DNA of 63,872 bases, the filler included, from Stramenopiles sp. TOSAG23-2 (Eukaryota), in assembly GCA_900128395.1 (NCBI GenBank). It is 6 parts of 6 records of this genome, joined end to end, with 100 filler letters (N's around TTAATTAATTAA, not from the genome) between each part and the next. Parts side by side here need not be neighbours in the genome. Positions count along the whole stretch, not along the records: positions 28,584 to 57,063 come from LT649400.1; 5 more parts are not named here. The stretch is one strand, 5' to 3'. Positions within the stretch are counted from its first letter, which is position 1; the number at the start of each line of letters is the position of its first letter. Under the pieces are notes generated by a model. It had not been told where the DNA came from. It saw only the letters and a list, made by a program, of their open reading frames with translations, and made no database searches. Shown in pieces: positions 1,656-59,247 of this stretch. The position numbers were made by a program, and so were the translations under genes.

Positions 1656-1911
1656 AAAAAGACACTTCTATATATATATACGTCACATCTCATTTAAATA
1701 TATCATAATATATTTAAAATATTATTATAATCATTATTATATGATATGCATATCATATGATATATGATATATATCATAATATATAAATACGTATGTTACA
1801 CAAGTAAATATATAATATGACTGGTTTAAAATCTAAAATTTATATAAAAATTTTCTCTTACGCATAATTTATACGCGTATAAAGTTTTTTACTCCAGTAA
1901 ATATATATAAT

Positions 1912-1949
<38 letters not shown>

Positions 1950-2090
1950 GCATATTTAATTTACTCTTCGTAATATTTTGAAACAGAATTTATTAAAATA
2001 TTTTAAATATTAATCGGATCCTTTGATCTTTAACGCTGTCATATATACACATAACGAGTATATTTTGGATCGTACACCTCTCTGTACGTA

Positions 2091-4367: not shown

Positions 4368-4719
4368 ATGTTTTGTCTATTTTAATATTATACCTGTCAC
4401 TGTTGTCATTGTCTATTAATAATGTTCACTTACAACAATTAAGTAGTGTATGTATGTATCTTATGATATCTTTATTTTATTTTATTTTAAAGATATTATC
4501 TTTCTTTTTCGGATTTGTTAGTGAAGAAAGTAAGATAGAAGATGATGAGTTGCGTGTTGCTAAAAAATAAAAAGATGAAAAGTGCAAAAGATTATCCAAT
4601 AATATCTAAAAACATGCATATTTATATACACACATGCATGCATACATACATATATATATATATATATATGCACATAGATAGATAGATAGATACGCACTTA
4701 TTACATACAATCAAACGAC

Positions 4720-11509: not shown

Positions 11510-12895
11510 CTAAGCAAATACAGTAAATAATTGTATTGCACCAGCCGCAGCACCTAATACACCACCAACAAAAACTAATTTTGCTTCATCTTCTTGAAAT
11601 ACTGGATGTAACACATCTTCAAATTTTTTTGGTGGTAAAGATTGCATAGCTGTTCTCAATGTATATTCAAAATTTAACGCTTCTTTCATATATTCATATG
11701 TACATGGTGTTAACTTTGGTAATTGCTTTTCAATTTCTTTTTCGATATATTTATGCATATTTTCAACTTCTTTTGGATCCAAAGATAAACCAATAATAGG
11801 ACTAAAGCTACCAATCATTTTTTTCGACATTTTACGTACATGATGTCGAAGGATGGCATAAAATTTTTTACTTTCCTTCGTTCGTTTTACTCCTTCTTTT
11901 CTATCAGCTTGTAAAATAAATCTCCATAACAAGTGAGGAGTGACAACTTCATCTGCCATTATTTTTGCAAAAACACGCGAGACTTTAGGTTGACGTGTCA
12001 AAAATATACCTTGTATCGTGCAACAACAAATATTGACAGGATTCGTCGGATTAAATATTATATACAAGGCAATGTAATTAGTTGCAATACCAACAATAAA
12101 ACCAGCAGCTGGTAAAACCCACATACCTTTGTAAAAATACCATAAAATAGTTTGCAATACGCCAAACAAAAATCCTAAATAAGCACCAGAACGTTCAATA
12201 AATGTGAATTCTTTATCACCACATTGTTTAAAAACGTTATTTAACAATTCTTTACGTTCATTTAACATCGTAACAACGGCATTTTCAACATCTAAAACTG
12301 CTTCAATATCTTCCCCAACCTCATTCATCAATCCAATGATCATTTCAGGGCATGCATCGATCGCACCATTTACAAAAATTTGTTGTAAACTCTGTGGTTG
12401 CAATGTCCATAACTTGCCTAAAAATTTATGTCCTACGTCATCCATTAATTTATGTATAACAGGTACTAATTGCGGTTTCATAATATCAGCAATCGTTTCA
12501 GGATCAACGCGTGCAAATACTTCTTGTAAGCTAAACAATTCACGTGTCATTAATTCAATGCATTTCCTTGCCATATCAGGTGCTTTTGTTGGAATGATGC
12601 CTTGCCAACCTATGCAACCAATAGGTTGCTTATCTCCACACAAATACCGTTTAATAGGAACCCCTGTAAATTCTAAAGGCCAAAACGTTAAAAACAATGC
12701 AACGACGTTTGTACCCCATCCGATGATGGCAGCAAAAATAGGGACGGTAACATATAACCAAATATTTCCATAGCATGGCAAACCTTCTGCTTCAAGGCAG
12801 CTTATTGAATTGGTATTTGTTGTAGCATCAACAATAGAAGAGGTATTCATCATTATTATTAGTGCCTCTCTCTCTGAAGAGTGGGTGAAGTGCAT
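11510..12895 (-). CDS. DUF445-family integral membrane protein (copy 1)
   Basis: IIGWGTNVVAL..F.P, GWQGIIP.KA, GIATNYIAL.IIF.P, QGIFL.RQ, LHPVFQEDE.KLV.VGGVLGA; first ATG is about 14 codons into the ORF. Confidence 0.8.
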   Translation of the reverse strand: MHFTHSSEREALIIMMNTSSIVDATTNTNSISCLEAEGLPCYGNIWLYVTVPIFAAIIGWGTNVVALFLTFWPLEFTGVPIKRYLCGDKQPIGCIGWQGIIPTKAPDMARKCIELMTRELFSLQEVFARVDPETIADIMKPQLVPVIHKLMDDVGHKFLGKLWTLQPQSLQQIFVNGAIDACPEMIIGLMNEVGEDIEAVLDVENAVVTMLNERKELLNNVFKQCGDKEFTFIERSGAYLGFLFGVLQTILWYFYKGMWVLPAAGFIVGIATNYIALYIIFNPTNPVNICCCTIQGIFLTRQPKVSRVFAKIMADEVVTPHLLWRFILQADRKEGVKRTKESKKFYAILRHHVRKMSKKMIGSFSPIIGLSLDPKEVENMHKYIEKEIEKQLPKLTPCTYEYMKEALNFEYTLRTAMQSLPPKKFEDVLHPVFQEDEAKLVFVGGVLGAAAGAIQLFTVFA

Positions 12896-12973
12896 TGCCT
12901 TATTCTTCTATATAAAATCACTTATGCATGAATCTAATATATAATAATGAATAATGATGAAAAAAACCCCTGA

Positions 12974-13851: not shown

Positions 13852-15237
13852 CTAAGCAAATACAGTAAATAATTGTATTGCACCAGCCGCAGCACCTAAT
13901 ACACCACCAACAAAAACTAATTTTGCTTCATCTTCTTGAAATACTGGATGTAACACATCTTCAAATTTTTTTGGTGGTAAAGATTGCATAGCTGTTCTCA
14001 ATGTATATTCAAAATTTAACGCTTCTTTCATATATTCATATGTACATGGTGTTAACTTTGGTAATTGCTTTTCAATTTCTTTTTCGATATATTTATGCAT
14101 ATTTTCAACTTCTTTTGGATCCAAAGATAAACCAATAATAGGACTAAAGCTACCAATCATTTTTTTCGACATTTTACGTACATGATGTCGAAGGATGGCA
14201 TAAAATTTTTTACTTTCCTTCGTTCGTTTTACTCCTTCTTTTCTATCAGCTTGTAAAATAAATCTCCATAACAAGTGAGGAGTGACAACTTCATCTGCCA
14301 TTATTTTTGCAAAAACACGCGAGACTTTAGGTTGACGTGTCAAAAATATACCTTGTATCGTGCAACAACAAATATTGACAGGATTCGTCGGATTAAATAT
14401 TATATACAAGGCAATGTAATTAGTTGCAATACCAACAATAAAACCAGCAGCTGGTAAAACCCACATACCTTTGTAAAAATACCATAAAATAGTTTGCAAT
14501 ACGCCAAACAAAAATCCTAAATAAGCACCAGAACGTTCAATAAATGTGAATTCTTTATCACCACATTGTTTAAAAACGTTATTTAACAATTCTTTACGTT
14601 CATTTAACATCGTAACAACGGCATTTTCAACATCTAAAACTGCTTCAATATCTTCCCCAACCTCATTCATCAATCCAATGATCATTTCAGGGCATGCATC
14701 GATCGCACCATTTACAAAAATTTGTTGTAAACTCTGTGGTTGCAATGTCCATAACTTGCCTAAAAATTTATGTCCTACGTCATCCATTAATTTATGTATA
14801 ACAGGTACTAATTGCGGTTTCATAATATCAGCAATCGTTTCAGGATCAACGCGTGCAAATACTTCTTGTAAGCTAAACAATTCACGTGTCATTAATTCAA
14901 TGCATTTCCTTGCCATATCAGGTGCTTTTGTTGGAATGATGCCTTGCCAACCTATGCAACCAATAGGTTGCTTATCTCCACACAAATACCGTTTAATAGG
15001 AACCCCTGTAAATTCTAAAGGCCAAAACGTTAAAAACAATGCAACGACGTTTGTACCCCATCCGATGATGGCAGCAAAAATAGGGACGGTAACATATAAC
15101 CAAATATTTCCATAGCATGGCAAACCTTCTGCTTCAAGGCAGCTTATTGAATTGGTATTTGTTGTAGCATCAACAATAGAAGAGGTATTCATCATTATTA
15201 TTAGTGCCTCTCTCTCTGAAGAGTGGGTGAAGTGCAT
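13852..15237 (-). CDS. DUF445-family membrane protein (identical copy 2)
   Basis: protein identical to copy 1. Confidence 0.7.
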   Translation of the reverse strand: MHFTHSSEREALIIMMNTSSIVDATTNTNSISCLEAEGLPCYGNIWLYVTVPIFAAIIGWGTNVVALFLTFWPLEFTGVPIKRYLCGDKQPIGCIGWQGIIPTKAPDMARKCIELMTRELFSLQEVFARVDPETIADIMKPQLVPVIHKLMDDVGHKFLGKLWTLQPQSLQQIFVNGAIDACPEMIIGLMNEVGEDIEAVLDVENAVVTMLNERKELLNNVFKQCGDKEFTFIERSGAYLGFLFGVLQTILWYFYKGMWVLPAAGFIVGIATNYIALYIIFNPTNPVNICCCTIQGIFLTRQPKVSRVFAKIMADEVVTPHLLWRFILQADRKEGVKRTKESKKFYAILRHHVRKMSKKMIGSFSPIIGLSLDPKEVENMHKYIEKEIEKQLPKLTPCTYEYMKEALNFEYTLRTAMQSLPPKKFEDVLHPVFQEDEAKLVFVGGVLGAAAGAIQLFTVFA

Positions 15238-15826
15238 TGCCTTATTCTTCTATATAAAATCACTTATGCATGAATCTAATATATAATAATGAATAATGAT
15301 GAAAAAAACCCCTGATGCCAACCTGGCCCAGCTGGCCAACTGCCAAAACACAAAAATATTTTTTTTGCTGATCTGGCAATCCAGCAATGCCAGAATGCCA
15401 GAATGCCAGAATGCCTGCTAAGGCCTGCTGCTGGGCCTGCCCAGCCTGCTACAGTAGACGACTATAAGGCCTCTGGAATGCGGAAAGGTCTTTGAAATAA
15501 TTTAGGTTGCTGATTGTTCAAAATTAGCTTTAGCACTTTACCACAACATGCACCATCACTACTACGCACCAACATTTAAATAGAGGTAACAGGTAACTAA
15601 GTAAGAAATATGACATGCCAATAATAATACAACAGTAATTGCTGCTATTATATATATAAGAACTAAAAAAAAAACAAAAAAAAAACGCTTCTTCAACATT
15701 TATAGATAGTAAATATCAAAACTATAGAAATAAAACAAATGAATAAGAACAAATAATATTTATACAAACAAACGAATATATACATACAAAAAAATTTCCC
15801 GATAAATTTATTTAGATCTATGAAAT

Positions 15827-35226: not shown

Positions 35227-36085
35227 ATTTCTTATGATTATATATATATTATTATTATTATATTATTTATATGTATACAATGTGTCTCCCTGAATGTATC
35301 TCTGCCGTCTGGGCATACGCTTCTATAATGATATAAAAGTCGGGATTGAAAATATATGTTCCGGCTATCTATTTAAATATTTATGAACTTACCGTATATC
35401 GTGTATATACTATGATGTCATTTATACGAGGATCCACGTGCAACCTCCTATTATATTGGCTGATCGATGATCGAAGAAGCTCATGGATTTATTGGCAGGT
35501 TGGCAGGCTGGCAGGCCTTAGACTATACTGTAGCGTGGCTATACGCCTCGTATGGTCATAATTAGGCACACCAACACAACAACTTGGCACAATACAGTAG
35601 TAACAGTACCTGGTATAAATTCAATAAATACACCGGATTTGCAAAAATTTATGCATTCCAGGCATTCCCGTGTATGTCAGATCCACAATATGGGAATAGC
35701 ATTATAATACTTGTAACAATAATGCTATGACCCCATACCTTTGTACATTTTTTTCGGCCTCTATAATAAATAATAATAGAATTCGTCTAAAGAATATTCT
35801 TCTAGAATTCTCTTATATATATAGATAGATTTATACCAGATACATGAAATACATTAGAATTGATGATGTAGATATGTATATAGATGCAGTATAAGACTTT
35901 GATAATTACTGGCATATTTTATATATACACAACAAATACATAAATATTTGAAAATTATAAATAAAAAATACACGTAGTAAATACAGAATTATAACTATTA
36001 TTATTATTACACTTTTCCTTTTTTAGTAATAATATATATATAAATAATTATAATACTTTATTCTTTTTTCCCCCGAATATACAAG

Positions 36086-38287
36086 ATGGATATAAATAGT
36101 ACATCAGCAGCAACGTTGCTGGAAAAAGTTGCATTACTAGAGCAAAAAATTGCTAGTATTGAAAATCAGCAAAATAATTATTGGTTATTGTCTAGTGCTT
36201 TTTCAATTTTCTTTATGCAGGCAGGATTTTTATTATTAGAAGCTGGTTCTGTTATGTCTAAAAATGTTAAAAGTATAATGATGAAAAATTTACTTGATAC
36301 GTTTGGTGGTGGATTAGCCTGGTATATATGTGGATTTTACGTATATATGTATTTTGCAGATCAAAATGCACCGCCATTTGCACCGATACCAATTGTAGAA
36401 AAATCACAGAAGGATTTGATTTATAATATGTTTATCCAATCTTTTACGTTTGCGAATTGTGCCAGTACAATAGCAAGTGGTGGAAGCGCTAGTAGGATGA
36501 AATCTATGGGTCATTTAAGTTTGGTATTGTTTTTGACGGCATATGTTTATCCTGTATTTGCCCATTGGTTGTGGGCTACGAATGGTTGGTTGCATCAGTT
36601 GGGTGCAATCGATTTTGCCGGTGGCTCAAGTGTACATATGTTGGGCGGAATTGCTGCTTTGATCGGGGCAATATCTGTCGGTCCGAGACATGGTCGTTTT
36701 ATTAAAACGATACAAGGGACATTGAAAGTTCGAGAAATTAAAGGACATAATGCAGTTCTAATCATGACCGGTACAAGTATTTTATGGTATGGTTGGTTTA
36801 GTTTTAATGGTGGATCCTCGGGATATGATAATAAATACCAAAGTATATTGCGATCGACAGCAAGTTTAAATACATTGATTGGTGGTTGTGCTGGTGGAGT
36901 CACGGTACATATCGTGAATATTATTAAAAATCGTAATCAGAAAATTGATTATAGTGAGGATGATGATAAGCGTCGTCAAGTGTATCAACCATATGAGTTT
37001 AACGATTTGGCACTTGGGATATTGGGTGGTTTAGTCACAGTTACGCCATGTGGGCCATTTATACCTGTATGGGCTGCTATTCTGTCGTCATTCGTGGGAG
37101 TATCCTTTGGTGCATGGGTATCTGAGAAAATGGTACAACTTGGTATTGATGATCCAGTCGATGCATTTGCAACACATGTACCTCCAGCAATTGTTGGTAT
37201 ATTGGCGATTGGATTGTTTGCTACAAAAGAAAGTCTTATACAATATGGCATACCAACGTGTATAGACGAGGCCAATTGTAGCTATGGTGTATTATTAGGT
37301 GGTGGGTGGCAATTGCTAGGTGCACAATGTTTATTGTTACTCATATGCATCGTATGGTCGTCGCAATCATACATTTTCTTAGCAATCTATAAGCGTTTTG
37401 GTAATGATCCGGAAAATCCACCATGTGGTTTTAAAAGTTGTTTGTATCGATTTACAAAACAGGAGGAAAAAGTTGGTTTGGATTTGTCATTTTATGATGG
37501 ATATGCATATCCAGAGATACAAGTACCGGAAGATTTGGTCCTTGCCTCTGGTGTAAAAAATGTAAAGCGTATTATTTTCCCTGGAAGCTTATCAAATAGA
37601 AACAGTAGCAAATTGGAAATGAATGGCGCTAACAATTCGGAAAAGAAAAAAGTAGATTTTAGGGATACTGTGCTTGAATTACCAAGAATTGATTTAACAC
37701 TTGGTGGTAAATATTTCATACGAATAGCAAATTCTGGTGATGTGGAGAAAATTTTTGAGATAGTCAACGCGTCATATGAAGTTGAAAAAGATGAAAATTC
37801 TGAATTTAAATTCAAATCCATGGACTATTTTCAACATACCGATGAAGTCAAAAACATCATTAAAAATAATAATGGTTCAACGTTAATCATTGCAATCGAC
37901 ACAGATACTTTGAAGATTGTTGGTTGTATTGGTTTAACAAAGGAACTTGTTGCTACTAATAATAAGAAGAAGAAAAAGAAAAGTGATAAAAATGCTATGG
38001 TTGTAAAAATTAGTCCATTTGCTACTAGTGTTCAGGAACAAAACAAAGGTATTGGAAAGAAGCTAATTGAATATGCCATTACATTTTGTAGAAAGGATGA
38101 AATATCAATTTTAAAGGCATGGGTCATTAATTGGAGAACCGATCTTTTTGAAATATATAAAAAATTAGGTTTTGTTGCGACCAAGACAACTAAAAAATAT
38201 ATAGCAAAAACTGATGATGATAAAATAAAAGAAGGCACATATTTACAATTATTTCAATTAAATATTCCTGCTGCAGATAGTACGTAA
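36086..38287 (+). CDS. ammonium transporter (Amt1-like) fused to a C-terminal GNAT acetyltransferase domain
   Basis: FFMQAGFLLLEAG, YPVFAHWLW, DFAGGSSVH, LWYGWFSFNGGS, IDDPVDAFATH, E.VGLD; then IRIANSGDVEKI..IVGCIG..ISPFATSVQEQNKGIGKKLIEYA..LFEIYKKLGF (GNAT). Confidence 0.92.
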   Translation: MDINSTSAATLLEKVALLEQKIASIENQQNNYWLLSSAFSIFFMQAGFLLLEAGSVMSKNVKSIMMKNLLDTFGGGLAWYICGFYVYMYFADQNAPPFAPIPIVEKSQKDLIYNMFIQSFTFANCASTIASGGSASRMKSMGHLSLVLFLTAYVYPVFAHWLWATNGWLHQLGAIDFAGGSSVHMLGGIAALIGAISVGPRHGRFIKTIQGTLKVREIKGHNAVLIMTGTSILWYGWFSFNGGSSGYDNKYQSILRSTASLNTLIGGCAGGVTVHIVNIIKNRNQKIDYSEDDDKRRQVYQPYEFNDLALGILGGLVTVTPCGPFIPVWAAILSSFVGVSFGAWVSEKMVQLGIDDPVDAFATHVPPAIVGILAIGLFATKESLIQYGIPTCIDEANCSYGVLLGGGWQLLGAQCLLLLICIVWSSQSYIFLAIYKRFGNDPENPPCGFKSCLYRFTKQEEKVGLDLSFYDGYAYPEIQVPEDLVLASGVKNVKRIIFPGSLSNRNSSKLEMNGANNSEKKKVDFRDTVLELPRIDLTLGGKYFIRIANSGDVEKIFEIVNASYEVEKDENSEFKFKSMDYFQHTDEVKNIIKNNNGSTLIIAIDTDTLKIVGCIGLTKELVATNNKKKKKKSDKNAMVVKISPFATSVQEQNKGIGKKLIEYAITFCRKDEISILKAWVINWRTDLFEIYKKLGFVATKTTKKYIAKTDDDKIKEGTYLQLFQLNIPAADST

Positions 38288-45950: not shown

Positions 45951-46812
45951 GATGTTAATATACACACACACATTTTAATTGCATATATATATATATATGT
46001 ATACATAAAGACTATCAATCTATCGAATTTATGAAACTTTTCTTCATCAAGATGAGATCGATAGTGAATTTATGGCGCAACACATTATTTAAATGTATCA
46101 TACAATGTTTTTACACAAACTATTGTATTAGTTACCAATTTTCCACCATGTAACCATATTCGTACAATTTTCTGAAGGTAACAAATACGATTTAGTATAA
46201 AACACATTCGATGCAATAAGAGACAATGGCTAAAAAATACAAAACAAATTTTCCACTTTTCCCGTCTTGTTAATTTTTAGTTTGTTTGATCTTTTCCAAC
46301 AATAGTACAGTGTAGTGCTTCCATTTTACATGTAAAATTTTGAAAAACAAGAGAGTTGTGAATATATTTAAAACTTTTTTATTATATTTACACTCAAAGT
46401 AAAGAGCAATTTTCAAAGAGATTATAAAAAATTTTAATACACTCGTATATCATATATATGATATACGTATTTTTTTATATAAAATGTATGATATTTCTAT
46501 ATATATGCATAGCTTATATATAGATATCATACTTCGTAAATAAAATAATCTAGATCATATTATACCATTATACCTGGGTATATGCATATTTATATATATA
46601 TTTAATATATGCATATGCGTAATGATACTTTTATCATAGAACTACTTTGTAAGTTATATGCAAAATAATATATATTTACGCCGCGTATATATTTTTAATA
46701 ATTTTACTTCCCGGTGATAAATACACTAAGCTGGTAAGCTCAAAATTCTTTTTTTTTAATAAATCCCCCCACACACACACGGGGTGTTTTTTTCCTAATA
46801 CTTATCTTTTTA

Positions 46813-48777
46813 TTAAAATACCTTTTCACATGATGGATGTTTTTCCCTGATGGTATCGTCTTTTGGAGTATTGCCAAAACGATCTTTGGCATTTAAAATA
46901 GCATCATTGCCTTTGGCATTTGCGATTAAATACTTTACACAATTCAGATGGCCATTACTTGATGCTAAATGAAGCGCAGTTCTATGATCATAATCAGCAG
47001 CATGTAAATTCATACCTCGTGCATGGAGGCGCACGAGGGTATCCAAATCACCTTCAGCTGCGGCAAAGAGAATTTGTGGTGCGATATCTGATACATTGTC
47101 TGTATTTAAATTATCTTCCGAGGACTTATTATAATGATCGGTTGAACCTTCGACACCACCTGCTTCTTTTAACATGGCTGCGCATGCCTCATGCTTATTA
47201 GCAATTGCATCGCCAAATGGAGTGCCACCCCATCTATCTTTTGCATTTATAGCATTTTCTTCGTTATATGTTTTTGCTCGTTTGATTAAAAATTCCAAAG
47301 CATTTAACTGACCTTCCGTCGCTGCTAAGTGCATTGCCGTTCTTAAATCATAATCTCCTTCAAAAACATTAGTTCCAGCATTTGCTTGGCTTTCCAATGA
47401 AGCAACATCACCTTCGCTAGCTGCATATAATAATTCACCGATTTCTTTTTGTTCCTCGGAATGTTTACGCGTTGTTATAACCAATTTATCTGTGGCTAAA
47501 CCGGAAAATACTTCAAATGCATTTAGTTTCACACGCTTTACCAATTCACGTGCAACTGCTACACCACGTTCTGAATTGCCGATTTTATCTAATCGTGGAG
47601 ACCAGACTGCAATACCACATACATTTGGAATGACCATGTAAACACAGCCACCGACACCTGATTTAGCAGGTACGCCAACATCAAATGCCCACTGTCCAGA
47701 ATAATCATACATGCCACATGTCAACATCAATGGCAACGCGTGTCGGATTGATTCAGGGGTACATACGCGATGGCCACTTATTGGATTTAACCCACCATTT
47801 GCCATCGTCGCTGCGGTAATGGACATGCATTTGCTGGTTGATAAAATGGAGCAAATTTGAAAATACAACTCCAATGTATCGCTTAAACTTTTGGTACCAT
47901 CATAACTGAAACATGGTGGCCATGATTTACGCTCACGCATCATATATCCTAAGCACCAATTTCTATCAGCAGTAGCACTTTCACTTTTGTACGTCGGTTC
48001 ATCAAAACCAACTGGTGCATCTAAACCACCACTTAATTCTTTCCAATAATTTATAACCTTTTGTAATCGTTCCTCACGACTTTCAACTTCAGGGAAGACC
48101 ATGGAACATGATAAAATTGCACCAGCATTGATGCATGGATTGTGCGGAACAGCACGATTGCCATTTTCTGGTATTGGTGCTGATTTTAACGCCATCGCAT
48201 TGAAAGGTAAACCGCTTGGCTCTGTTCCAACATATTTATGGACATAATCTTCGCCAAACTGGTTCAATGCAATGATGTAGGAAATTGGTTTCGAGCAAGA
48301 TTGAATACAAAATTGCTTATCATGATCGCCAATACTAAAATGTTGCCCATCAATTGTCGTGATTGAGATAGCAAATTGCTCTGGATCAACCTGTGCTAAT
48401 TGTGGGATATAATCAGCATTATCTCCATTTTTGTTTGGTTCGACTTGTTTATATACCTCTTCGATAATATTTGTTAGTGTTTTGAAATCCGGTACAACCA
48501 AGTCACCCGTAATACATTTGTGTATCAACGTTGAACACGTTTGTATAGCATCACAAAATTGTTGCAACGTAAGACGTTGGTCATTTTTCACGCCATCAAT
48601 CGATTCAAGAAATTGGAAAAATCCTTTCAATCGCTTGTCATCATCATGTAAACCATTGTTTTTTAAAAATTGTATTAAATAAGTGGATGATACCGTCCCA
48701 TCATTATTTAAATCAAGCGCTTCAAAGACTTGCTTATCACGCGTAGTAATGTCATGGTGTGCAATAACTGAGGTCAT
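46813..48777 (-). CDS. GLS: glutaminase with N-terminal EF-hand-like region and two C-terminal three-repeat ankyrin modules
   Basis: ADYIPQLA, FCIQSCSKP (catalytic SxxK), VGTEPSG.PFN, PHNPCINAGAI, LELYFQICS, CGMYDYSG.WAF.VG.PAKSGVGG, SPRLD..GNS.RG; two DYD.RTA.HLA..DR(W/F)G.TP modules. Confidence 0.96.
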   Translation of the reverse strand: MTSVIAHHDITTRDKQVFEALDLNNDGTVSSTYLIQFLKNNGLHDDDKRLKGFFQFLESIDGVKNDQRLTLQQFCDAIQTCSTLIHKCITGDLVVPDFKTLTNIIEEVYKQVEPNKNGDNADYIPQLAQVDPEQFAISITTIDGQHFSIGDHDKQFCIQSCSKPISYIIALNQFGEDYVHKYVGTEPSGLPFNAMALKSAPIPENGNRAVPHNPCINAGAILSCSMVFPEVESREERLQKVINYWKELSGGLDAPVGFDEPTYKSESATADRNWCLGYMMRERKSWPPCFSYDGTKSLSDTLELYFQICSILSTSKCMSITAATMANGGLNPISGHRVCTPESIRHALPLMLTCGMYDYSGQWAFDVGVPAKSGVGGCVYMVIPNVCGIAVWSPRLDKIGNSERGVAVARELVKRVKLNAFEVFSGLATDKLVITTRKHSEEQKEIGELLYAASEGDVASLESQANAGTNVFEGDYDLRTAMHLAATEGQLNALEFLIKRAKTYNEENAINAKDRWGGTPFGDAIANKHEACAAMLKEAGGVEGSTDHYNKSSEDNLNTDNVSDIAPQILFAAAEGDLDTLVRLHARGMNLHAADYDHRTALHLASSNGHLNCVKYLIANAKGNDAILNAKDRFGNTPKDDTIREKHPSCEKVF

Positions 48778-49579
48778 AATTTTCTGGTAATTATATTAAT
48801 AATTGAATGAATGATACAAGAAAAATATTTTCTTTCTTGTTATTTTCTCTTCTTTTGGAATTAAAAATTTGTGTCTTAAATAAAAACAATTAAACGCTTT
48901 TTTCTTATATATTTGTTGTTTTTGTTTCTCACTAAAGAAATCAGATGTTAATGTTACTTGTTAATGAAAAGCGAACTTTACAACAAATGAATCTTTCGTA
49001 TGTCACATTAACATATACCATCACATACTGTTGTATTAATATTATTATGTTAAACCAACAGAGAGAAGCAGAGACTGTGTGTGCGAGCGACGGCTGTGTG
49101 TGGCAGACTGGCAGAGAAGGTTCTTTTTCACAGATGTTCAATTTGTAAATACATGCAAATAGCACTATCACAAAGTTTTTGAATGTCGGATCCGGTGGCC
49201 GGTGGCCTGAGAGCTGAGCTCTGGTCTGCGTCTGCTGGAGCTCTGTGGTTTTTTTGTGTTGTTTTTGTGTTCTATATTTTTGTAGCTGTCCAGCTGTCGT
49301 CAGTAAAGTCAGGCACCAGGCTAAGGCTGTGCTGGTGTGCAACCTCTGTGTTTGTTGTGCACTTGTTGTTGTTGAAAATAATATAATAAAAAAATATAAT
49401 AAAAAATAAAATACCGTATGTTTATATATATATTAGGTATGTGGTATATAAACACACCGCACAAAGAATATATGTATGTAATATACTTGAAGTCAATCAG
49501 GATTGTCATAATAATACGAATGCACATGGTGAGAGGATACACAATTTATACTAAGCTATACGTCTGATTGTTTGATACA
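48778..49579. promoter_or_regulatory. putative bidirectional promoter region between glutaminase and Amt-ankyrin
   Basis: ~800-bp head-to-head intergenic region with a GC-richer core at about 49060-49350. Confidence 0.5.
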
Positions 49580-52300
49580 ATGTTAACAACAAATGCAACG
49601 TCAAATATCCCGCCTGGATGCGAACAATTAAACGATGGTGATACATCATTTATGATTATGGCAACCACATTTGTTATGCTACAAACACCTGCATTAGGTT
49701 TAGCACAAGCTGGAATTATTCGTCGAAAAAATGCTTTATCAATGCTTATGCAAACTTTAACTGGTTTCGTAATTGGATCGTTGCTTTGGTTTATTTGTGG
49801 GTTTTCATTATCTTTTGGTCCTAGTTTTCACGGTTTCATTGGTAACTTACAACATTCATTTTTAGAAAATGTACCTGTAAATACTTGTTTTGTAAATTCT
49901 ACAGCAAAAACAATACCTGGTATTTTGTTTGCTGCCTTTCAAATGATGTTTGCTGTTATGGTACCAGTAATAGTAACTGGGGCATGGGCGGAAAGAATGT
50001 TATTTGAAGCTTTTATATTATTTGTTTTACTTTGGCCTTTTCTAGTTTATTATCCATTAGCTCATTGGGTATGGAATACTAAAGGGTTTTTAGCTGCGTA
50101 TGGTGTAATGGATTTTGCGGGAGGATTAACCATACATACTTCGTCAGGGGTTGCTGCGTTTGCAGTTACGTTGGTGTTAAGCGGCCGGATGAAATTGAAT
50201 AGGAAAGGATTAGCACATCATAATCTACCAATAGCAATTCTTGGAGGGGCATTGATTTGGGGTGGTTGGTATAGTTTCAATGGTGGCAGTGCATTTAAAA
50301 GCAATGGACAAGCAAGTATGGCTGTAATGAATACACATATTAGTGCTTGTGTTGGAGCAATGATATGGACCATTTTAAGTTATCGCAGGGAGAAACATTG
50401 GCATTTAACAGAAATTATGAATGGTGCATATGCTGGACTTGCTGCGATTACACCTGGATCTGGTTTCGTAACACCACAATCAGCATTTTTCATAGGAATT
50501 TTAGGTGGTATCAGTTCATATGTATGGATAGTGAAAATTATACCACGTACAAATTTAGATGACGCATTAGATGTTACTGGGTTACAAGGCGCTCCAGGAA
50601 TAATCGGTACCATTTGTGTCGGGCTTTTCGCAACTGAAGAATATGCAAGTCCAGCAGGATATTTTGTAAGTTACAATTTGGAATTATTTGTAAAGCAACT
50701 TGTTGGGGTTTCAATTACTATTGTATGGACATTGGTTACGACATATTTATTGATGCTGCTAATTAAAAAATTAGTCGGTATTGATGTATCGCCGGATGTA
50801 GAAGAAAAAGGCTTAGACCTAACCCAGATTGGCGAACAGGCATATGATGAATCTTTAGCACCCGTGTTAGATTTAGGCACCGATGTATTGACGTCAAAGT
50901 TATGCGAAGCATGTCATAATGGTGATTTTCCTAAAGTTCGCTCATTGATACAATTAGGTGCAAAAGCAGAATCTCATGATTATGATAAACGTTCTCCATT
51001 GCATATTACCGCCGGAGAAGGAAATGTTGAAATATTAAAATATTTGATTGAAAATTTTCCTATTAATGTTAATAGTCAAGATAGATATGGAAATACACCA
51101 TTAGCAGATGCTGTTAGGCATAACAATACAGAATGTATTCAAGTTTTAAAAAATCATGGTGGAAAAATAATGCATGGTACTGGGTATTTTGCTTCGAAAT
51201 CTATTTTAAGTGCTGCTTTTTCAGGAAATGCAGAGGAAGTTCGATGGATACTAGAGCAAGATTTAAAATGCAAAGACGAGGCAGATTACGATGCAAGGAC
51301 GCCTTTGCATCTTGCAGCAAGTGAAGGACATATAGAAGTGTTGAAATTATTATTGCATTTTGGAGCAAAAGTAGATGTGATTGATAGATGGCAACATACT
51401 CCATATTATGATGCTATTTATTATCATCATCATGAATGTGCTAAATTGTTGCGTTTAAATAGTAATAGCAACCATAAGAATAATGGAAATAATAAATCTA
51501 ATAATAGTAATCATAGTAGCACAAGCAGTAGTAGCAGTAGCAATAGCAATATGAGTGAACGTACACCATTATTATTATCATCATCATCAACAACAGTAGA
51601 AATGAAAGGTAATAAAACTAAGAATGACAATAGTAGTAATAATGTCAATGAAAATGTTGAAGAATGGAAAATTGATTTTGAAGAAAACATACAGGAAAGG
51701 AAAGAATTAAATGCAGCTGATCGTGCATTATTCCAAGCTGCTTCAGTTGGAGATTTTTCCGAGTTGAAGAAGTTAGTCAAACGTGGTGCTAATATTAATT
51801 TAAAAGATTATGATGATCGTTCTGTTTTGCATTTAAGTGCAAGCGCTGGGCATGTTGATATTGTACAGTATTTAATAAAAAGCGATGGTGTAATCATTGA
51901 TGTTTTTGATCGTTTTGGTAACACCCCATTACAAGATGCGATTGATCATGGGTATATCAATATATCGAATATTTTAAGAACTGCTGGTGCAACAATTAAA
52001 AACCCTACGTTGGCCGCTCAATTATGCAAACTAGCAGCTGAAGGAAATTTGAAAGAATTAAAAAAACTCGAAATCGGTTCTGGGATTGATATTCATGTTT
52101 GTGATTATGATGGTCGTACCGCATTGCACTTGGCTGCTTGTAATAACAATATTGAAATAGTAAAATGGATTTTAAAAATTGGAGGTAGATTCTCAAACAT
52201 GTCACGTGATAGATATGGCAATACTGCGTTGGATGATGCGACAAGATATAAATATAGTGAGATTGTTCAATTGTTAAGAGAGACATTTTATGATGTGTGA
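49580..52300 (+). CDS. ammonium transporter (AmtB/MEP-like) fused to four glutaminase-type ankyrin modules (~12 repeats)
   Basis: GDTSFMI..T.FVMLQTP.LG, FQMMFA, GAWAER, YYPLAHWVW, DFAGGLTIH, WGGWYSFNGGS, GLAAITPGSG, DDALDV, EEKGLD...GEQAY; four DYD.R..LH..DR(Y/W/F)..T modules; first ATG at 49580. Confidence 0.94.
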   Translation: MLTTNATSNIPPGCEQLNDGDTSFMIMATTFVMLQTPALGLAQAGIIRRKNALSMLMQTLTGFVIGSLLWFICGFSLSFGPSFHGFIGNLQHSFLENVPVNTCFVNSTAKTIPGILFAAFQMMFAVMVPVIVTGAWAERMLFEAFILFVLLWPFLVYYPLAHWVWNTKGFLAAYGVMDFAGGLTIHTSSGVAAFAVTLVLSGRMKLNRKGLAHHNLPIAILGGALIWGGWYSFNGGSAFKSNGQASMAVMNTHISACVGAMIWTILSYRREKHWHLTEIMNGAYAGLAAITPGSGFVTPQSAFFIGILGGISSYVWIVKIIPRTNLDDALDVTGLQGAPGIIGTICVGLFATEEYASPAGYFVSYNLELFVKQLVGVSITIVWTLVTTYLLMLLIKKLVGIDVSPDVEEKGLDLTQIGEQAYDESLAPVLDLGTDVLTSKLCEACHNGDFPKVRSLIQLGAKAESHDYDKRSPLHITAGEGNVEILKYLIENFPINVNSQDRYGNTPLADAVRHNNTECIQVLKNHGGKIMHGTGYFASKSILSAAFSGNAEEVRWILEQDLKCKDEADYDARTPLHLAASEGHIEVLKLLLHFGAKVDVIDRWQHTPYYDAIYYHHHECAKLLRLNSNSNHKNNGNNKSNNSNHSSTSSSSSSNSNMSERTPLLLSSSSTTVEMKGNKTKNDNSSNNVNENVEEWKIDFEENIQERKELNAADRALFQAASVGDFSELKKLVKRGANINLKDYDDRSVLHLSASAGHVDIVQYLIKSDGVIIDVFDRFGNTPLQDAIDHGYINISNILRTAGATIKNPTLAAQLCKLAAEGNLKELKKLEIGSGIDIHVCDYDGRTALHLAACNNNIEIVKWILKIGGRFSNMSRDRYGNTALDDATRYKYSEIVQLLRETFYDV

Positions 52301-53132
52301 TTTATAAAAATATACTAAAAATATCAGAGTACATTTTAATTCATTTACCTTAGCCAGGTTAGCACATTTTGTATATATTTGTGTGATATTACAAACAAAA
52401 TTACAGACGAAGAGACATATTTTTAAAAAATCAAAAAATATATATTGTGATTTACAACTTCATGAAGGAGGACCTCTTTCATTTAGCTCTGAATCACAGA
52501 CAGACGAAACATCTTTTGAATACTAAATAATTTTTACTAAAATGTATATAAATCATTTTTGATTTGAGAGGTTAATAAACGGGGGTAAAAGAATTTTATA
52601 TAAGTATTAACCATCACTATATAATTATTGAGCATATTATCATACTTAACACGAGAAGTGTAAAATTATTATGCATATTATATTAACTTTAGATTTTTAA
52701 ACCATCGTTTTTCTATGTATGTTATGATAAGTATATACCTGTAATTAATGACAATTTATCTCAAAATAATAAAAAAAAATGTAAAATTTAATATATCATA
52801 ATATATATATAATGTGCATCATACGCGTATGATATATTGTACGAACTTAGATTTTAACCAATATATATATATTGTACGAGAAAAACACATATATATTGTA
52901 CGAACATATTTTAATTAATATTTTTTACGCGTATGATACATTTACTTTTATTAATACGACGCGTATTAATTACGTATATGATACTATTCCGTATATTTAT
53001 ACATTAAATCAAATATAAAAATATTCGTATTTTACACGCACATAAAAAATTATTCGGGACTCGTAAAAGTTGCGTGTGTTCGTATTTACTTTTCATAAAA
53101 TGCTTGCCTTTTCAAAAAAAACACAATACCTA

Positions 53133-53735
53133 TTAAAGGTAATTGCTAAATGGTTCGGGTGTACCAGCTTCTGGCCCATTACTAAAAAATAACAGTGGGC
53201 GATAATCAACAGATGCTTCTTTTACAACATTAGTTTTTTTAAAATGTTGAATCAAACCTAATTTGCCTTGAATGCGTCCATATTTAACTGCACAAATTTT
53301 ATGAGATTTAAATCGAGTCCATTCACGACAATGAAAGCTTGCATAAAAATTTGCAACATGATGACATTCCATAAAATTCATAAAAGCGTATCCAATGTTA
53401 CATTTGTTTTTATAATCCATTGGCAAATAGAAGAAATCATACGTCTTATCAAATTCCATATTAATTTCTTCTAACAACATTGATTGCGTATAATTATTTG
53501 GAATATTTTGTATCATAATCGTCGATCTACGATCCATACCACTAAGGATAGCATCAACATCGATATAAAATTCTTTACCTGATCTTGGATCGCGTTTACG
53601 ACGACTGTTATTGTTATTAGTGTGAGTATTGCCATTATTACTATTTTGATAATGAGAATTATGACGATTAAATCCGCCATCGCTTTGCATTGCATTATTA
53701 TTATTATGCTTACCATTATAGTCTCTTCCTCCTCT
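53133..53735 (-). CDS. Mei2-like RNA-binding protein, C-terminal RRM3 portion (continuation of 55362..57063)
   Basis: DRRSTIMIQNIPNNYTQ.ML..FDKTYDFFYLPMDYKNKCNIGYAFMNF..W.RF.S.KICAV.YGRIQGK..LI.HF..RPLLF. Confidence 0.9.
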   Translation of the reverse strand, partial: RGGRDYNGKHNNNNAMQSDGGFNRHNSHYQNSNNGNTHTNNNNSRRKRDPRSGKEFYIDVDAILSGMDRRSTIMIQNIPNNYTQSMLLEEINMEFDKTYDFFYLPMDYKNKCNIGYAFMNFMECHHVANFYASFHCREWTRFKSHKICAVKYGRIQGKLGLIQHFKKTNVVKEASVDYRPLLFFSNGPEAGTPEPFSNYL

Positions 53736-54385
53736 TTTAAATTATCAAATGATGGATTTTTATGTTGTTGTGAGAATTTTTTACGTTTTGATGATGATAA
53801 AGGTGGAGACAATTTTTTGTTCTTATTGCCTCCATTTTTTGATGATATTCCATTTGTTGATTTGCCATTTGGAGTTTTTACAGCCATATTTTTTTCTGCT
53901 GTTTGTTTTTTCAATGCAGCGGAACGTGCTAAGTTTTTCTTTGATTGTTCTCTGATACTATTTATAAATTTTTGACTGTGTTCTAGCATAGGATCAATAA
54001 CATTTGCTGGTATAACTAATACTACAGAATCTATAGTAGCTTTAGCAAAAGCAGTACGTTGAAAAGTTGTTGAACCATACAATGCTGTTTCACCAAAAAA
54101 TGGATAATGTTTTCTATTTAAATCTTTATGTTGAAGATCATTATTTTTTGTCATGTTGCCTAATTCTTTTACTTTTCCATGAATTTCATCGTAAAATAAT
54201 ATCTCACCTGCTAGTAAAATAAACATTTCATTTGCTTCATCACCTTTTCTACATATTACTGTATTTTTTCTTACCTTTCTCATTTCAACTTTTCCAGCAC
54301 CAGCAATTTTTGCTAGAATTTCAGTAGGTATCGATTCAAAGACATCAATCTGTTGAAGCATCGTAACAAATTCAATGGTTGCCAT
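53736..54385 (-). CDS. cyclic-nucleotide-binding domain protein, 3'-truncated at the inversion junction
   Basis: LQQIDVF..I..E.L..IA, ICRKGDEANEMFILLAGEI, FFGETAL...RTAFAKA; the ORF tail after ..NLKEEEE is Mei2 DNA read in another frame. Confidence 0.8.
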
Positions 54386-55361
54386 GGTGATTTATTGTTT
54401 GTAATTTTATATTTTTATTTGAATAATCTTGTTCTGTTTTTTTTTATATCCTTTCAATTTCAATAAATATGTTTTGTTTCTAACCGGATAACATTTTTTA
54501 TATGTTTATAGAATATTATGTGTATTAATATATTTATACTTCAAGCCAGCAAGCCCGGGCAGAATAAGAAGAAGATTCGAGATGAAGAATAAGAATGCAG
54601 ATGATGACCGCCAGAACGCCACAGGAATTATTCCGCCAGTCAGCCAGACACAGTATTATAATACTGTAACAGGCTTGACAGCCAGTCGACAGCAGAGAAC
54701 GCCAGAACGCGCTTGAGGAAAAATAATGGTTTTAGTTTTTAATAAAATTATACCGTGGTGTGTCAATGCTATTACTGTAGTTTTATTTGTTCTTCGATGA
54801 AAGTACTTATTATTGAAATAATGAAAGTCAAAAGAACTTTTGATATTGACTTATATGGATTACCACCGGATGCTCTGCCGTCACCAATAAATAGGTATGC
54901 TTGCTTGCTTGTTAGAATATACGGAAAATAAGAACAATACGGTTCAGGTACCGTATTACCTTTTTTGACGCGTCAAGTGCGCCTCGTCACATAATTGCAA
55001 TTCATATTTTATTAATAAAATAAATAGATTCCGGATACACATTAGACACACACATAGAATATTTGTGCACAATATACACAAAGCTAAGACATTCAATGTT
55101 TTATTCAATGATACGAAAGATACGGATATAAAAGATAAACAAAATTATTAAGTGATTGCACAAGTATCTTGGTATTTTCTATATATATATATATATATAT
55201 ATACATATTATTAATTTTTATAATATTGTATCGCATTATATTCATAACTATTTATATATCTTTTTTTTTTTTGAATAGACTAAAAAGTATATTTTTGGTT
55301 CCCGTATTATTCAACTGCGTTGCAGATATAGCAGGGCCATATATAACTCAAAAAAAAAATC

Positions 55362-57844: not shown

Positions 57845-58762
57845 TCACTTCGCAATACCAAATCTAATTAATAAATCAATTAACTTGTTGTATTCAAATG
57901 TTTTTGCACGTGTTAATGGTGTATGTCCATAACAATTCGTTTGTTCCAATGAATCATGAATATCATTTAAGTGATGATGTAATAAATATTCTATCACATC
58001 ATATGAATTGTTTCTACATCCAGCTAAAAATGGTGTTGTTTGATATTGATCCATTTGATTATATTTCAATGGCACCATATCATTAACATCATTCAATGCT
58101 AATGCATCACTTCCATTTACATTTACATTCAATGAACTGCTTTCAATTAACAATTTTAAATCATTTAATTTATTCATACAGCATAATATAAAAAATGGTG
58201 TCTCGCCATTATCATTACTTTGATTGAAATCAATCAAGGGTGTATTTAATAATAATTTAATAATATTACTATTTGCAACACTAGTAGGACCAGCACATGC
58301 AATCGTTAATGCAGTTTCACCTTTTTCTTTACCTTTTTCAACCGTTTTATTTACATTGATGTTGTTTGTTTGTAATAATAATTGTACATTTCTATCAAAA
58401 CCCTGTTGTATTGCAATATGTAACGGTGTCATACCATTCATTTTATCGACTTTATTCACATCAATTGTATCTTGTGCCAATAATTTTTTGATCTTGTTGT
58501 AATGTTCTCCTTCTCGTTTCGTTGTCTCCTGTTGTTGTTGCTGATTGTTATTGGTAGTAGTATCAGGTGGAATAATGGCATTACATGTTTCACATAATTC
58601 ATATAAAATTGTTTTACCATTTGGTTGATAATTATTAATTACATCATCATCATCATTATCATTTAATATTATTATATTTTTCTTTATATTCTTACTTATC
58701 TTTGTGAAAATGAAAGATACATATGTATTTTCATGTTTATTTTTCATTACCATCGATGTCAT
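57845..58762 (-). CDS. ankyrin-repeat protein (possibly 5'-truncated at contig edge)
   Basis: GKTILYELC, GMTPLHIAIQQG, GETALTIAC, GETPFFILC, TTPFLAGC, GHTPLTRA. Confidence 0.85.
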   Translation of the reverse strand: MTSMVMKNKHENTYVSFIFTKISKNIKKNIIILNDNDDDDVINNYQPNGKTILYELCETCNAIIPPDTTTNNNQQQQQETTKREGEHYNKIKKLLAQDTIDVNKVDKMNGMTPLHIAIQQGFDRNVQLLLQTNNINVNKTVEKGKEKGETALTIACAGPTSVANSNIIKLLLNTPLIDFNQSNDNGETPFFILCCMNKLNDLKLLIESSSLNVNVNGSDALALNDVNDMVPLKYNQMDQYQTTPFLAGCRNNSYDVIEYLLHHHLNDIHDSLEQTNCYGHTPLTRAKTFEYNKLIDLLIRFGIAK

Positions 58763-59247
58763 CTTTNNNNNNNNNNNNNNNNNNNNNNNNNNNNNNNNNN
58801 NNNNNNNNNNTTAATTAATTAANNNNNNNNNNNNNNNNNNNNNNNNNNNNNNNNNNNNNNNNNNNNATATAATATTTTTTCAATTTTTTTAGAAAAATGT
58901 ATTATTTTTTACTTTAAATAAAAATATTTTTTAATATATAATGTTAATATATATACCGTATATATGTATTTTATTAATAAACAATTTACATAATAAAATA
59001 TCGTTCGTACGTATTATTTTTAGATCTAATATACCTTTCGTAAAATAAATATTATTATAATCACCTGTAGTACATTTTTTTTTATTGAATTATTTGATGG
59101 CCAGATGGCTCTCCTAAATAATATATAATTATATAAATAATAATAGCCCACCAGCTCGAGCTATAGCATTAACAGCATTTTACACCGTAAAGCTACAATA
59201 TAATATTCTTCATTCACATATAAAGAATATCAATGACAAATATTAAA

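Follow-up and report, generated by a model that had tools for sequence, protein, structure and literature searches.

Organization of the glutaminase/Amt locus

The stretch of DNA analysed here (the window) comprises 63,872 bases, including 470 N, from Stramenopiles sp. TOSAG23-2 and is AT-rich, with a G+C fraction of 0.24-0.36. It contains a head-to-head pair of genes, of which the one on the minus strand encodes a kidney-type glutaminase with C-terminal ankyrin modules (P0001) and the one on the plus strand encodes an ammonium transporter (Amt) with an ankyrin tail (P0002, referred to as Amt-ANK). Both proteins were read from the first ATG of their open reading frame (ORF), and the pair was laid out as follows.

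46813-48795, minus strand: glutaminase ORF, stop to stop (coding sequence (CDS) 46816-48777, 654 aa, P0001; stop codon 46813-46815)
48778-49579, no strand: divergent spacer between the start codons, 802 bp, presumed bidirectional promoter
49568-52300, plus strand: Amt ORF, stop to stop (CDS 49580-52297, 906 aa, P0002; stop codon 52298-52300)

The original prediction had the two genes diverge from a shared region of about 800 bp, which agreed with the 802 bp measured. This spacer had a G+C-richer core near 49060-49360, and a motif scan of it returned AT-rich chance repeats alone, with no notable repeats. Twenty public runs, drawn from 9 studies, contained the stretch; nearly all were marine poly(A) or oligo-dT RNA libraries. 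RNA contigs were mapped from 4 of these runs, each from a separate study, and in 4/4 runs each gene was covered colinearly by its own contigs. The glutaminase was covered by single contigs without joints (46639-48923 in X1 and 46780-48952 in X4), and the Amt gene by contigs at 49551-49881 and 49881-52284 (X4) and at 50143-52304 (X1). Barring one weak chimeric record, no intron joints were found within either ORF, and none of the listed RNA contigs bridged the spacer stretch at about 49052-49550, an absence that is not proof of silence. Because the contigs were colinear, joints were lacking and the spacer was unbridged, both genes were taken to be intron-less and separately transcribed in the same samples. 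In-frame stops and RNA contigs together fixed the start positions of both proteins.

The glutaminase

The glutaminase gene and the domains of its product were located at the following positions.

46816..48777, minus strand: CDS of the kidney-type (KGA/GLS-like) glutaminase (Pfam; best PDB matches human KGA, E 4e-110, and GLS2)
48490..48732, minus strand: EF-hand_14 N-terminal domain, residues 16-96 (Pfam PF17959, E 4.5e-8)
47515..48426, minus strand: Glutaminase catalytic domain, residues 118-421 (Pfam PF04960, E 2.5e-98, model 1-286 of 286)
47152..47436, minus strand: glutaminase ankyrin module 1, residues 448-542 (counterpart of the one ANK domain in human KGA)
46816..47076, minus strand: glutaminase ankyrin module 2, residues 568-654 (no counterpart in human KGA)

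P0001 had the make-up of a kidney-type glutaminase, with a full catalytic domain carrying the Ser-x-x-Lys set and flanked by EF-hand-like and ankyrin domains, and the Pfam scan placed Ank_2 in two stretches. Its alignment with human KGA/GLS2 (E 4e-110) spanned residues 35-537 and included the first ankyrin module. Ser160-x-x-Lys163, Tyr123, Asn213, Glu266, Asn273, Tyr305, and Tyr357 were invariant columns among 24 homologues and identical in the KGA alignment; we take these columns to map onto the human active-site residues. Judged by its sequence, P0001 is an active-looking kidney-type glutaminase. Only 15 residues preceded EF-hand_14, which begins at residue 16, and an in-frame stop lay 6 codons 5' of Met1, leaving no room for a long targeting presequence. 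An animal-type mitochondrial presequence was not found in P0001, going by its N-terminus, the upstream stop, and the lack of RNA joints, and the protein is most likely cytosolic because it has no presequence. Two ankyrin modules were present in 109/115 module-bearing glutaminase homologues from protists. No fusion of the two partners was seen, in that PF04960 occurred in 0/120 listed Amt matches and PF00909 in 0/120 listed glutaminase matches.

Amt-ANK and its pore

The corresponding features of the Amt gene were these.

49580..52297, plus strand: CDS of the Amt-ANK ammonium transporter/channel (Pfam; RNA contigs)
49649..50845, plus strand: Ammonium_transp domain, residues 24-422 (Pfam PF00909, E 9.8e-104, model 2-399 of 399)
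50585..50587, plus strand: codon for Gln336, the second twin-His position, E. coli AmtB His318 (column counts, PDB alignments)
50897..51181, plus strand: Amt ankyrin module 1, residues 440-534 (Pfam, module alignment)
51203..51487, plus strand: Amt ankyrin module 2, residues 542-636 (Pfam, module alignment)
51488..51724, plus strand: low-complexity Asn/Ser-rich linker between the module pairs, residues 637-715 (translation)
51725..52009, plus strand: Amt ankyrin module 3, residues 716-810 (nearest module is module 1)
52022..52297, plus strand: Amt ankyrin module 4, residues 815-906 (module alignment, cross-scoring with hidden Markov models (HMM))

Ank_2 was found by Pfam in four stretches of P0002 (E 2.4e-64). 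The PDB matches were A. fulgidus Amt-1 (E 9e-75) and E. coli AmtB (E 7e-65), and also Mep2, and in the HMMER alignments Gln336 stood opposite His318 of E. coli AmtB and the equivalent histidine of A. fulgidus Amt-1 and Mep2. P0002 thus lacks the full twin-His pair, its first member being His186 and its second Gln336. The rest of the pore signature was retained. Asp178 was present in 64/64 non-gap rows of the family alignment and the first pore histidine, His186, was conserved; across the Amt-ANK family Phe124 and Phe233 were near-invariant, as was Trp152, and Ser237 occurred in 63/66. The conserved Asp, the Phe gate, and the recruitment site were accordingly all present in P0002, their E. coli numbering (Asp160 for the first) being in part presumed. 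Since the fold and these remaining signature residues were kept, P0002 was filed as a pore variant inside Amt/Mep/Rh.

The substitution was a property of the whole family. Gln occupied the second pore position in 66/66 Amt-ANK proteins, and His occupied it in 132/133 other Amts, with a gap in the remaining one. An exhaustive search covered 1.84 billion representatives, and its best 150 matches were examined, 60 of which had an Amt domain. These 60 comprised 26 with Gln and ankyrin repeats, 6 with Gln and no ankyrin repeats (fragments of 236-468 aa), 23 with His and no ankyrin repeats, one with His and ankyrin repeats (P0399), one with Trp and ankyrin repeats, and 3 without site coverage; Gln was therefore at the site in 32/57 site-covering Amt matches among these best 150.

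Passages of PMC3647058 describe the twin-His motif as almost universally conserved, with a Glu substitution as 'the only common natural variant', and report that single twin-His variants still conduct ammonia and, in AmtB and Mep2, support growth on ammonium. Passages of PMC9040831 state that hydrophilic twin-His substitutions push AmtB toward channel-like behaviour and that Glu occupies the His1 position in the paralogue ScMep1. By analogy with these variants, we infer that Amt-ANK would still conduct ammonium, by an altered, more channel-like mechanism. With the Gln-for-His change in Amt-ANK, nature has run an experiment on a motif around which the transporter-versus-channel debate turns.

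A second Amt gene lay in the window about 11 kb from the glutaminase, at 36044-38287 on the plus strand. Its product (P0363, 747 aa) joins an Ammonium_transp domain (47-448) to a GNAT acetyltransferase domain at the C-terminus (591-715); the Amt domain shares 26% identity with its P0002 counterpart and has His at the second twin-His position. We know of no earlier description of an Amt-GNAT fusion. Two Amt genes and one glutaminase were thus found within 16 kb of the window, and with the second Amt 11 kb off, ammonium genes cluster locally.

The Amt-ANK family

Ammonium_transp and ankyrin repeats occurred together in 66/120 listed P0002 relatives, the window's own cluster among the 66, so that the architecture is widespread and not specific to this genome. 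Named carriers were Andalucia godoyi, Balamuthia mandrillaris, and the diatom Entomoneis, in addition to MMETSP and EukProt transcriptomes. Four full modules were present in 53/67 Amt-ANK proteins (the window protein being counted twice, as P0002 and P0003), and the consensus of 52 homologues had two modules, a linker, and two further modules, with the linker position kept.

The transporter domains of Amt-ANK proteins were monophyletic (18/18 with FastTree support 99, and 16/16 with IQ-TREE SH-aLRT 100). Their nearest ankyrin-less relatives were Nitrososphaera-type archaeal Amts, at 44-47% identity, and these together with Amt-ANK, P0070, and P0399 formed a clade with support 100. P0002 belongs to the family by every feature, having four modules in the 2+linker+2 order, Gln at the pore, and its place in the clade. 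The Amt modules grouped by position, module 1 needing 2 changes and module 3 needing 4, compared with about 25 when shuffled; the four-module tail is therefore older than the spread of the family. Being conserved across one widespread clade, it was not acquired in this genome. From these comparisons Amt-ANK appears to be an old, widespread, monophyletic protist family.

P0399 (550 aa), which falls in the Amt-ANK/Nitrososphaera-type clade, keeps the second pore His and has one generic ankyrin module that is not of the DYD type described below; it may be an independent or an intermediate fusion. Other fusions among the listed Amt matches were to PII, CBS, and histidine-kinase domains. A EukProt transcript (P0069, 1398 aa) encodes tandem Amt domains (about 51-454 and 527-960) followed by a tail of about 440 aa, in which no match to P0001 or P0002 was found.

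The ankyrin modules

The hallmark DYDxR[TS]x[LM]H occurred six times in a six-frame translation of the whole window, every time within these two genes. The six modules of about 95 aa aligned in register with pairwise identities of 29-44%, and therefore share homology rather than a chance likeness. Hallmark count, Pfam, and alignment all confirmed that the same module is present twice on the glutaminase and four times on the Amt.

The original prediction had further derived the Amt tail from a glutaminase-type module, which the data did not bear out. In HMM cross-scoring, Amt modules reached 92-102 bits against modules of other families and 71-98 bits against eukaryotic and bacterial glutaminase modules. 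Amt modules 1 and 3 were mutually closest (95-96 bits), and the glutaminase modules were nearer each other than to the Amt modules. A module tree (285 modules, 93 columns) separated the positions and singled out no donor. A PDB sequence search with Amt modules 1-2 retrieved generic long ankyrin proteins and designed repeats, with KGA absent from the top 60, and an ESM Atlas search with the Amt tail retrieved generic ankyrin clusters only. With a tree that gave no donor and generic matches in both databases, acquisition of the tail from a glutaminase was dropped.

Forty further metagenomic module-bearing ORFs were examined, chosen by similarity to the Amt tail and hence a biased sample. Their partner domains were protein kinase (9), urea transporter (4), and cNMP-binding (4), with single cases of NAD-glutamate dehydrogenase, SPX/EXS, adenylate kinase, ion channel, and U-box. 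The DYD-type module is thus a widespread building block, and the count of nitrogen-related carriers is suggestive, though the sample is biased. Two of the ORFs (L022:8509-10971 and L029:3994-6414) have an N-terminal urea transporter (PF03253) and C-terminal DYD-type modules, the layout of Amt-ANK. The glutamate dehydrogenase ORF carries ELFV_dehydrog, GDH_2nd, Bac_GDH_CD, and GDH2_N, and encodes another ammonia-releasing enzyme with this type of module. In human GLS2/KGA, according to passages of PMC10912226, the two ANK domains of the dimer form one shared bundle that restrains activity; a DYD-type module can therefore pair.

Linkage of ankyrin-type glutaminase and Amt genes in bacteria

Among metagenome loci retrieved by alignment with Amt-ANK, 14/27 with an Amt domain also encoded a glutaminase on the same strand, and the two of the 14 that were inspected were closely packed operons, their genes lying 4 and 20 nt apart. 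Because an Amt-ANK query favours Amts beside ankyrin repeats, the search was repeated from the glutaminase side, using 80 species genomes whose glutaminase best matched P0001 and which were picked regardless of Amt. All 80 glutaminases were of the EF-hand_14 plus ANK type, and by their record titles the loci spanned at least 8 phyla. An Amt gene lay within the 10-kb flanks in 30/80 loci and within 2.5 kb in 22/80, in the latter case always on the same strand (12 upstream, 10 downstream) and in an operon-like arrangement. Module number made little difference to the rate of linkage, which was 14/53 for one-module and 6/19 for two-module glutaminases.

Whole genomes sampled in two phyla (201 and 401 genomes) served as the control. 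In the 201-genome phylum, 33 genomes had a glutaminase. Four of these were ankyrin-type, of which the seed and one other adjoined an Amt, and the 29 others were short, one of them adjoining an Amt divergently. In the 401-genome phylum, 90 genomes had a glutaminase and 80 were searched for Amt, the sole adjacency being that of the seed's ankyrin-type gene. No Amt lay within 40 kb of the 83 other full-length glutaminase matches in this phylum; nine of these matches were long forms (511-739 aa), in which the module was looked for and was absent. When the samples were pooled, Amt adjacency was found for 1/112 ankyrin-less and 30/80 ankyrin-type glutaminases (Fisher p 2e-12; expected background about 0.6%), which places bacterial operon linkage about 60-fold above background.

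The linked Amts were scattered over the Amt phylogeny. Well-supported branches forced at least 10 changes in the FastTree tree and at least 4 in a smaller IQ-TREE tree, and the linked Amts came from at least 10 separate Amt lineages in at least 8 phyla. None had ankyrin repeats of its own. A PII/GlnK gene lay within 500 nt of the Amt in 3/34 linked Amts, all three of them from Nannocystis, and the seed genomes G001 and G004 each had a second Amt elsewhere. Such recurrent placement of Amt beside an ankyrin-bearing glutaminase points to selection and is therefore good evidence of joint action.

Several single loci are recorded here in their own right. In the three Nannocystis loci (L082-L084) PII/GlnK lies 40 nt from the Amt, which is about 360-730 nt upstream of the glutaminase catalytic region (tblastn), and the PII gene may sit between Amt and glutaminase. 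In L173 (G199:C6) an Amt at 1992-3218 (minus strand) and an ankyrin-less glutaminase of 359 aa at 3515-4591 (plus strand) stand head to head like the window pair. Seven loci (L161-L167, from G341, G522, G554, G377, G501, G261, and G528) encode glutaminases of 622-652 aa with about 300 extra residues, no ankyrin module, and no Amt neighbour. The bacterial metagenome contig L015 encodes a 220-aa protein of two DYD-type modules and no glutaminase domain at 1223-1885 (plus strand), 743 nt upstream of an Amt at 2628-3965 (plus strand), a single case from a biased search. A free-standing ankyrin protein beside Amt was rejected as a general rule, since it was seen in L015 only and 0/3 others among the 401 genomes were near an Amt. 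Descent of the window pair from a bacterial amt-gls operon was likewise ruled out, by the Nitrososphaera-type clade (support 100) that excludes the 34 linked Amts.

Interpretation of the gene pair

We read the locus, with a confidence barely above even, as a divergent, co-regulated gene pair through which a marine protist with an AT-rich, intron-poor genome produces and conducts ammonium. The cytosolic glutaminase would free NH4+ from glutamine, and the His-Gln channel of Amt-ANK would pass that ammonium across a membrane for disposal or compartment control. Disposal would be the natural direction for a bacterivorous or amino-acid-catabolising protist, the direction and the identity of the membrane both being presumptive, and the ankyrin modules would on the simplest view be regulatory or assembly domains. 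Anatomy, family membership, transcription, pore substitution, and the linkage in bacteria are demonstrated, whereas co-regulation of the two genes and any contact between glutaminase and Amt are presumptive. The pair itself is a lead; firmer results, and ones better suited to testing, are the pore change throughout the family and the linkage in bacteria.

The following points weigh against a co-regulated pair. Flanking DNA was available for two eukaryotic Amt-ANK relatives, and adjacency of glutaminase and Amt was found in 0/2: L001, whose Amt domain is 72% identical to the window's, has an SDR-like gene upstream, and L078, in which introns are present, has a PI3/4-kinase-like gene upstream. 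The Amt-ANK clade is sister to Nitrososphaera-type Amts and excludes 34/34 glutaminase-linked bacterial Amts. The module is also found on kinases, urea transporters, and cNMP-binding proteins, so that sharing it is weak evidence for a specific partnership, and the RNA contigs are uninformative on levels or co-regulation. In the bacterial comparison, the 112 controls were drawn by another sampling than the 80 loci, which are themselves not phylogenetically independent (3 are from Nannocystis and 3 linked ones from Micromonospora, for example), and 1/3 of the non-seed ankyrin-type glutaminases in the phylum samples adjoin an Amt. That the ankyrin glutaminase and the Amt work together was therefore upheld in part, by the bacterial linkage (30/80 versus 1/112) and by transcription in the same samples, against 0/2 for eukaryotic adjacency. 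As a whole, the idea of joint action in the original prediction gained independent support, and most of its specific reading failed by its own refuting conditions: the Amt modules did not group specifically with glutaminase modules, Amt-ANK is widespread, and the two relatives lack the adjacency.

Alternatively, the neighbourhood would be incidental, or at most loosely co-regulated, with two independent proteins whose shared tail is a common protist module type. We consider this rather unlikely. In its favour, no fewer than 8 further protein families carry the module among the metagenomic ORFs, both eukaryotic relatives lack the adjacency (2/2), and Amt-ANK proteins are widespread whether or not a glutaminase is linked to them. 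Against it stand bacterial operon linkage about 60-fold over background, two Amt genes and a glutaminase within 16 kb, and the expression of both genes in the same samples. It is also unlikely that Amt-ANK is mainly an ammonium sensor (transceptor), whose altered pore binds or slowly conducts ammonium and whose tail relays a signal to partners, with the glutaminase possibly a regulated target. The invariant His-to-Gln change in a motif that passages of PMC3647058 call almost universally conserved would suit a sensor. Signalling precedents are given in passages of PMC9040831 (fungal Mep2 transceptors) and PMC10433425 (the histidine-kinase tail of Ks-Amt5), and the same module type is carried by protein kinases and cNMP-binding proteins. 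Against a sensor, single twin-His variants of AmtB and Mep2 support growth on ammonium (passages of PMC3647058), the recruitment and gate residues are conserved, and the Amt-ANK protein itself has no signalling output domain.

A direct form of partnership, in which glutaminase and Amt dock through ankyrin-ankyrin contacts as an ammonium-channelling complex or for mutual regulation, we regard as quite unlikely. Both proteins carry the same type of module, and both tails are expected in the cytosol, given the cytoplasmic C-terminus of Amts (as stated in passages of PMC10433425) and the lack of a presequence on the glutaminase. The bundling of GLS2/KGA ANK domains in the dimer (passages of PMC10912226) is a precedent for such contacts. 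An Amt neighbour is, in bacteria, a specific feature of the glutaminases that bear ankyrin repeats, and those Amts usually have no neighbouring GlnK gene; but the linked bacterial Amts are without ankyrin repeats, so contact between ankyrin domains cannot explain that linkage. The Amt modules are no nearer to glutaminase modules than to those of other families, and the even module numbers (2; 2+2) fit intramolecular pairs as well as intermolecular ones. The free-standing two-module protein just upstream of the Amt in L015 would fit docking, but it came from a search biased to Amt plus ankyrin, and 0/3 other such bacterial proteins lay beside an Amt.

A broader joint proposal, taken as a whole, is a long shot. 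The DYD-type three-repeat module would serve ammonium metabolism specifically, for docking or regulation; bacterial kidney-type glutaminases would use their ankyrin domain to bind the cytoplasmic face of a dedicated Amt, replacing GlnK and coupling hydrolysis to flux; in protists the modules would have been fused to channels (Amt-ANK, urea transporter-ANK) and to other ammonia-releasing enzymes; and contacts between modules would bring glutaminase, channels, and dehydrogenases together as ammonium metabolons. If true, this would reveal an ancestral role for the ankyrin domain of human KGA/GLS2, which has long been a puzzle.

Other features of the window

Overlapping frames for cNMP_binding (53513-54391) and RRM_2 (53133-53741) were found at 53133-54391 on the minus strand, and may represent either two genes or a single gene interrupted by a frameshift or a small intron. 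Two ORFs of equal length (465 aa) at 11510-12907 and 13852-15249, both on the minus strand and with 945 bp between them, had no Pfam match and may be a tandem duplication. A 321-aa ORF at 57845-58810 (minus strand) has generic ankyrin repeats without the DYDxRTxLH hallmark.

Significance and comparison with known systems

Searches of full-text literature, with supplementary files and subscription journals outside their scope, found no Amt-ankyrin family, second-His Gln variant, or amt-glutaminase operon, and a 2023 review of prokaryotic Amts contains no occurrence of 'ankyrin' or 'glutaminase'. Relative to the literature searched, the protist Amt-ANK family, its invariant Gln, and the bacterial Amt/ankyrin-glutaminase operon, usually without GlnK, are new in the sense of not found rather than not published; Amt-ANK protein sequences are already public under generic names. 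Together, the family, the pore change, and the bacterial operon make a testable case for coupled ammonium production and conduction. They also point to a possible role for the ankyrin domain of glutaminase, whose sole known effect in human KGA/GLS2 is to restrain activity. The organism is sufficiently abundant for marine poly(A) metatranscriptomes of 9 studies to contain it, and the gene pair may matter for nitrogen recycling by marine protists.

Human KGA/GLS and GLS2 have the same order of EF-hand-like N-domain, glutaminase domain, and C-terminal ankyrin module as P0001, and human KGA shares with it the Ser-x-x-Lys and other active-site columns and the DYDxRTxLH and DRWxxTP hallmarks. P0001 differs from the human enzymes in its second ankyrin module, the lack of an import extension, its intron-less gene, and its Amt neighbour. 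In the bacterial amtB-glnK pair an Amt gene is likewise joined to the gene of a cytoplasmic protein of nitrogen metabolism, and passages of PMC10433425 describe how GlnK plugs the cytoplasmic vestibule of AmtB. The bacterial ankyrin-type glutaminase gene occupies the usual place of glnK beside the Amt, but the putative partner is an ankyrin enzyme rather than a PII trimer. The window pair differs from amtB-glnK in being divergent and eukaryotic and in having an Amt with its own ankyrin tail.

Amt-ANK shares with the Ks-Amt5 histidine-kinase fusion and the Mep2 transceptors an Amt core with a C-terminal cytoplasmic addition and a possible regulatory or sensing role. It differs from them in that the addition is a four-module protein-binding scaffold without catalytic output, in its eukaryotic origin, and in its His-Gln pore. 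The common natural Glu variant of the twin-His motif lies at the first histidine. The fungal Mep1/Mep3-type proteins, which have this Glu, and Amt-ANK are both cases of natural, family-wide twin-His substitution, but in Amt-ANK it is the second His that is replaced, and by Gln. Rh channels, in the erythrocyte ankyrin-1 complex and with kidney ankyrin-G, also combine an Amt/Mep/Rh channel with ankyrin repeats on its cytoplasmic side. There the repeats belong to a separate 24-repeat cytoskeletal ankyrin acting in trans, whereas Amt-ANK carries short three-repeat modules fused to the channel itself.

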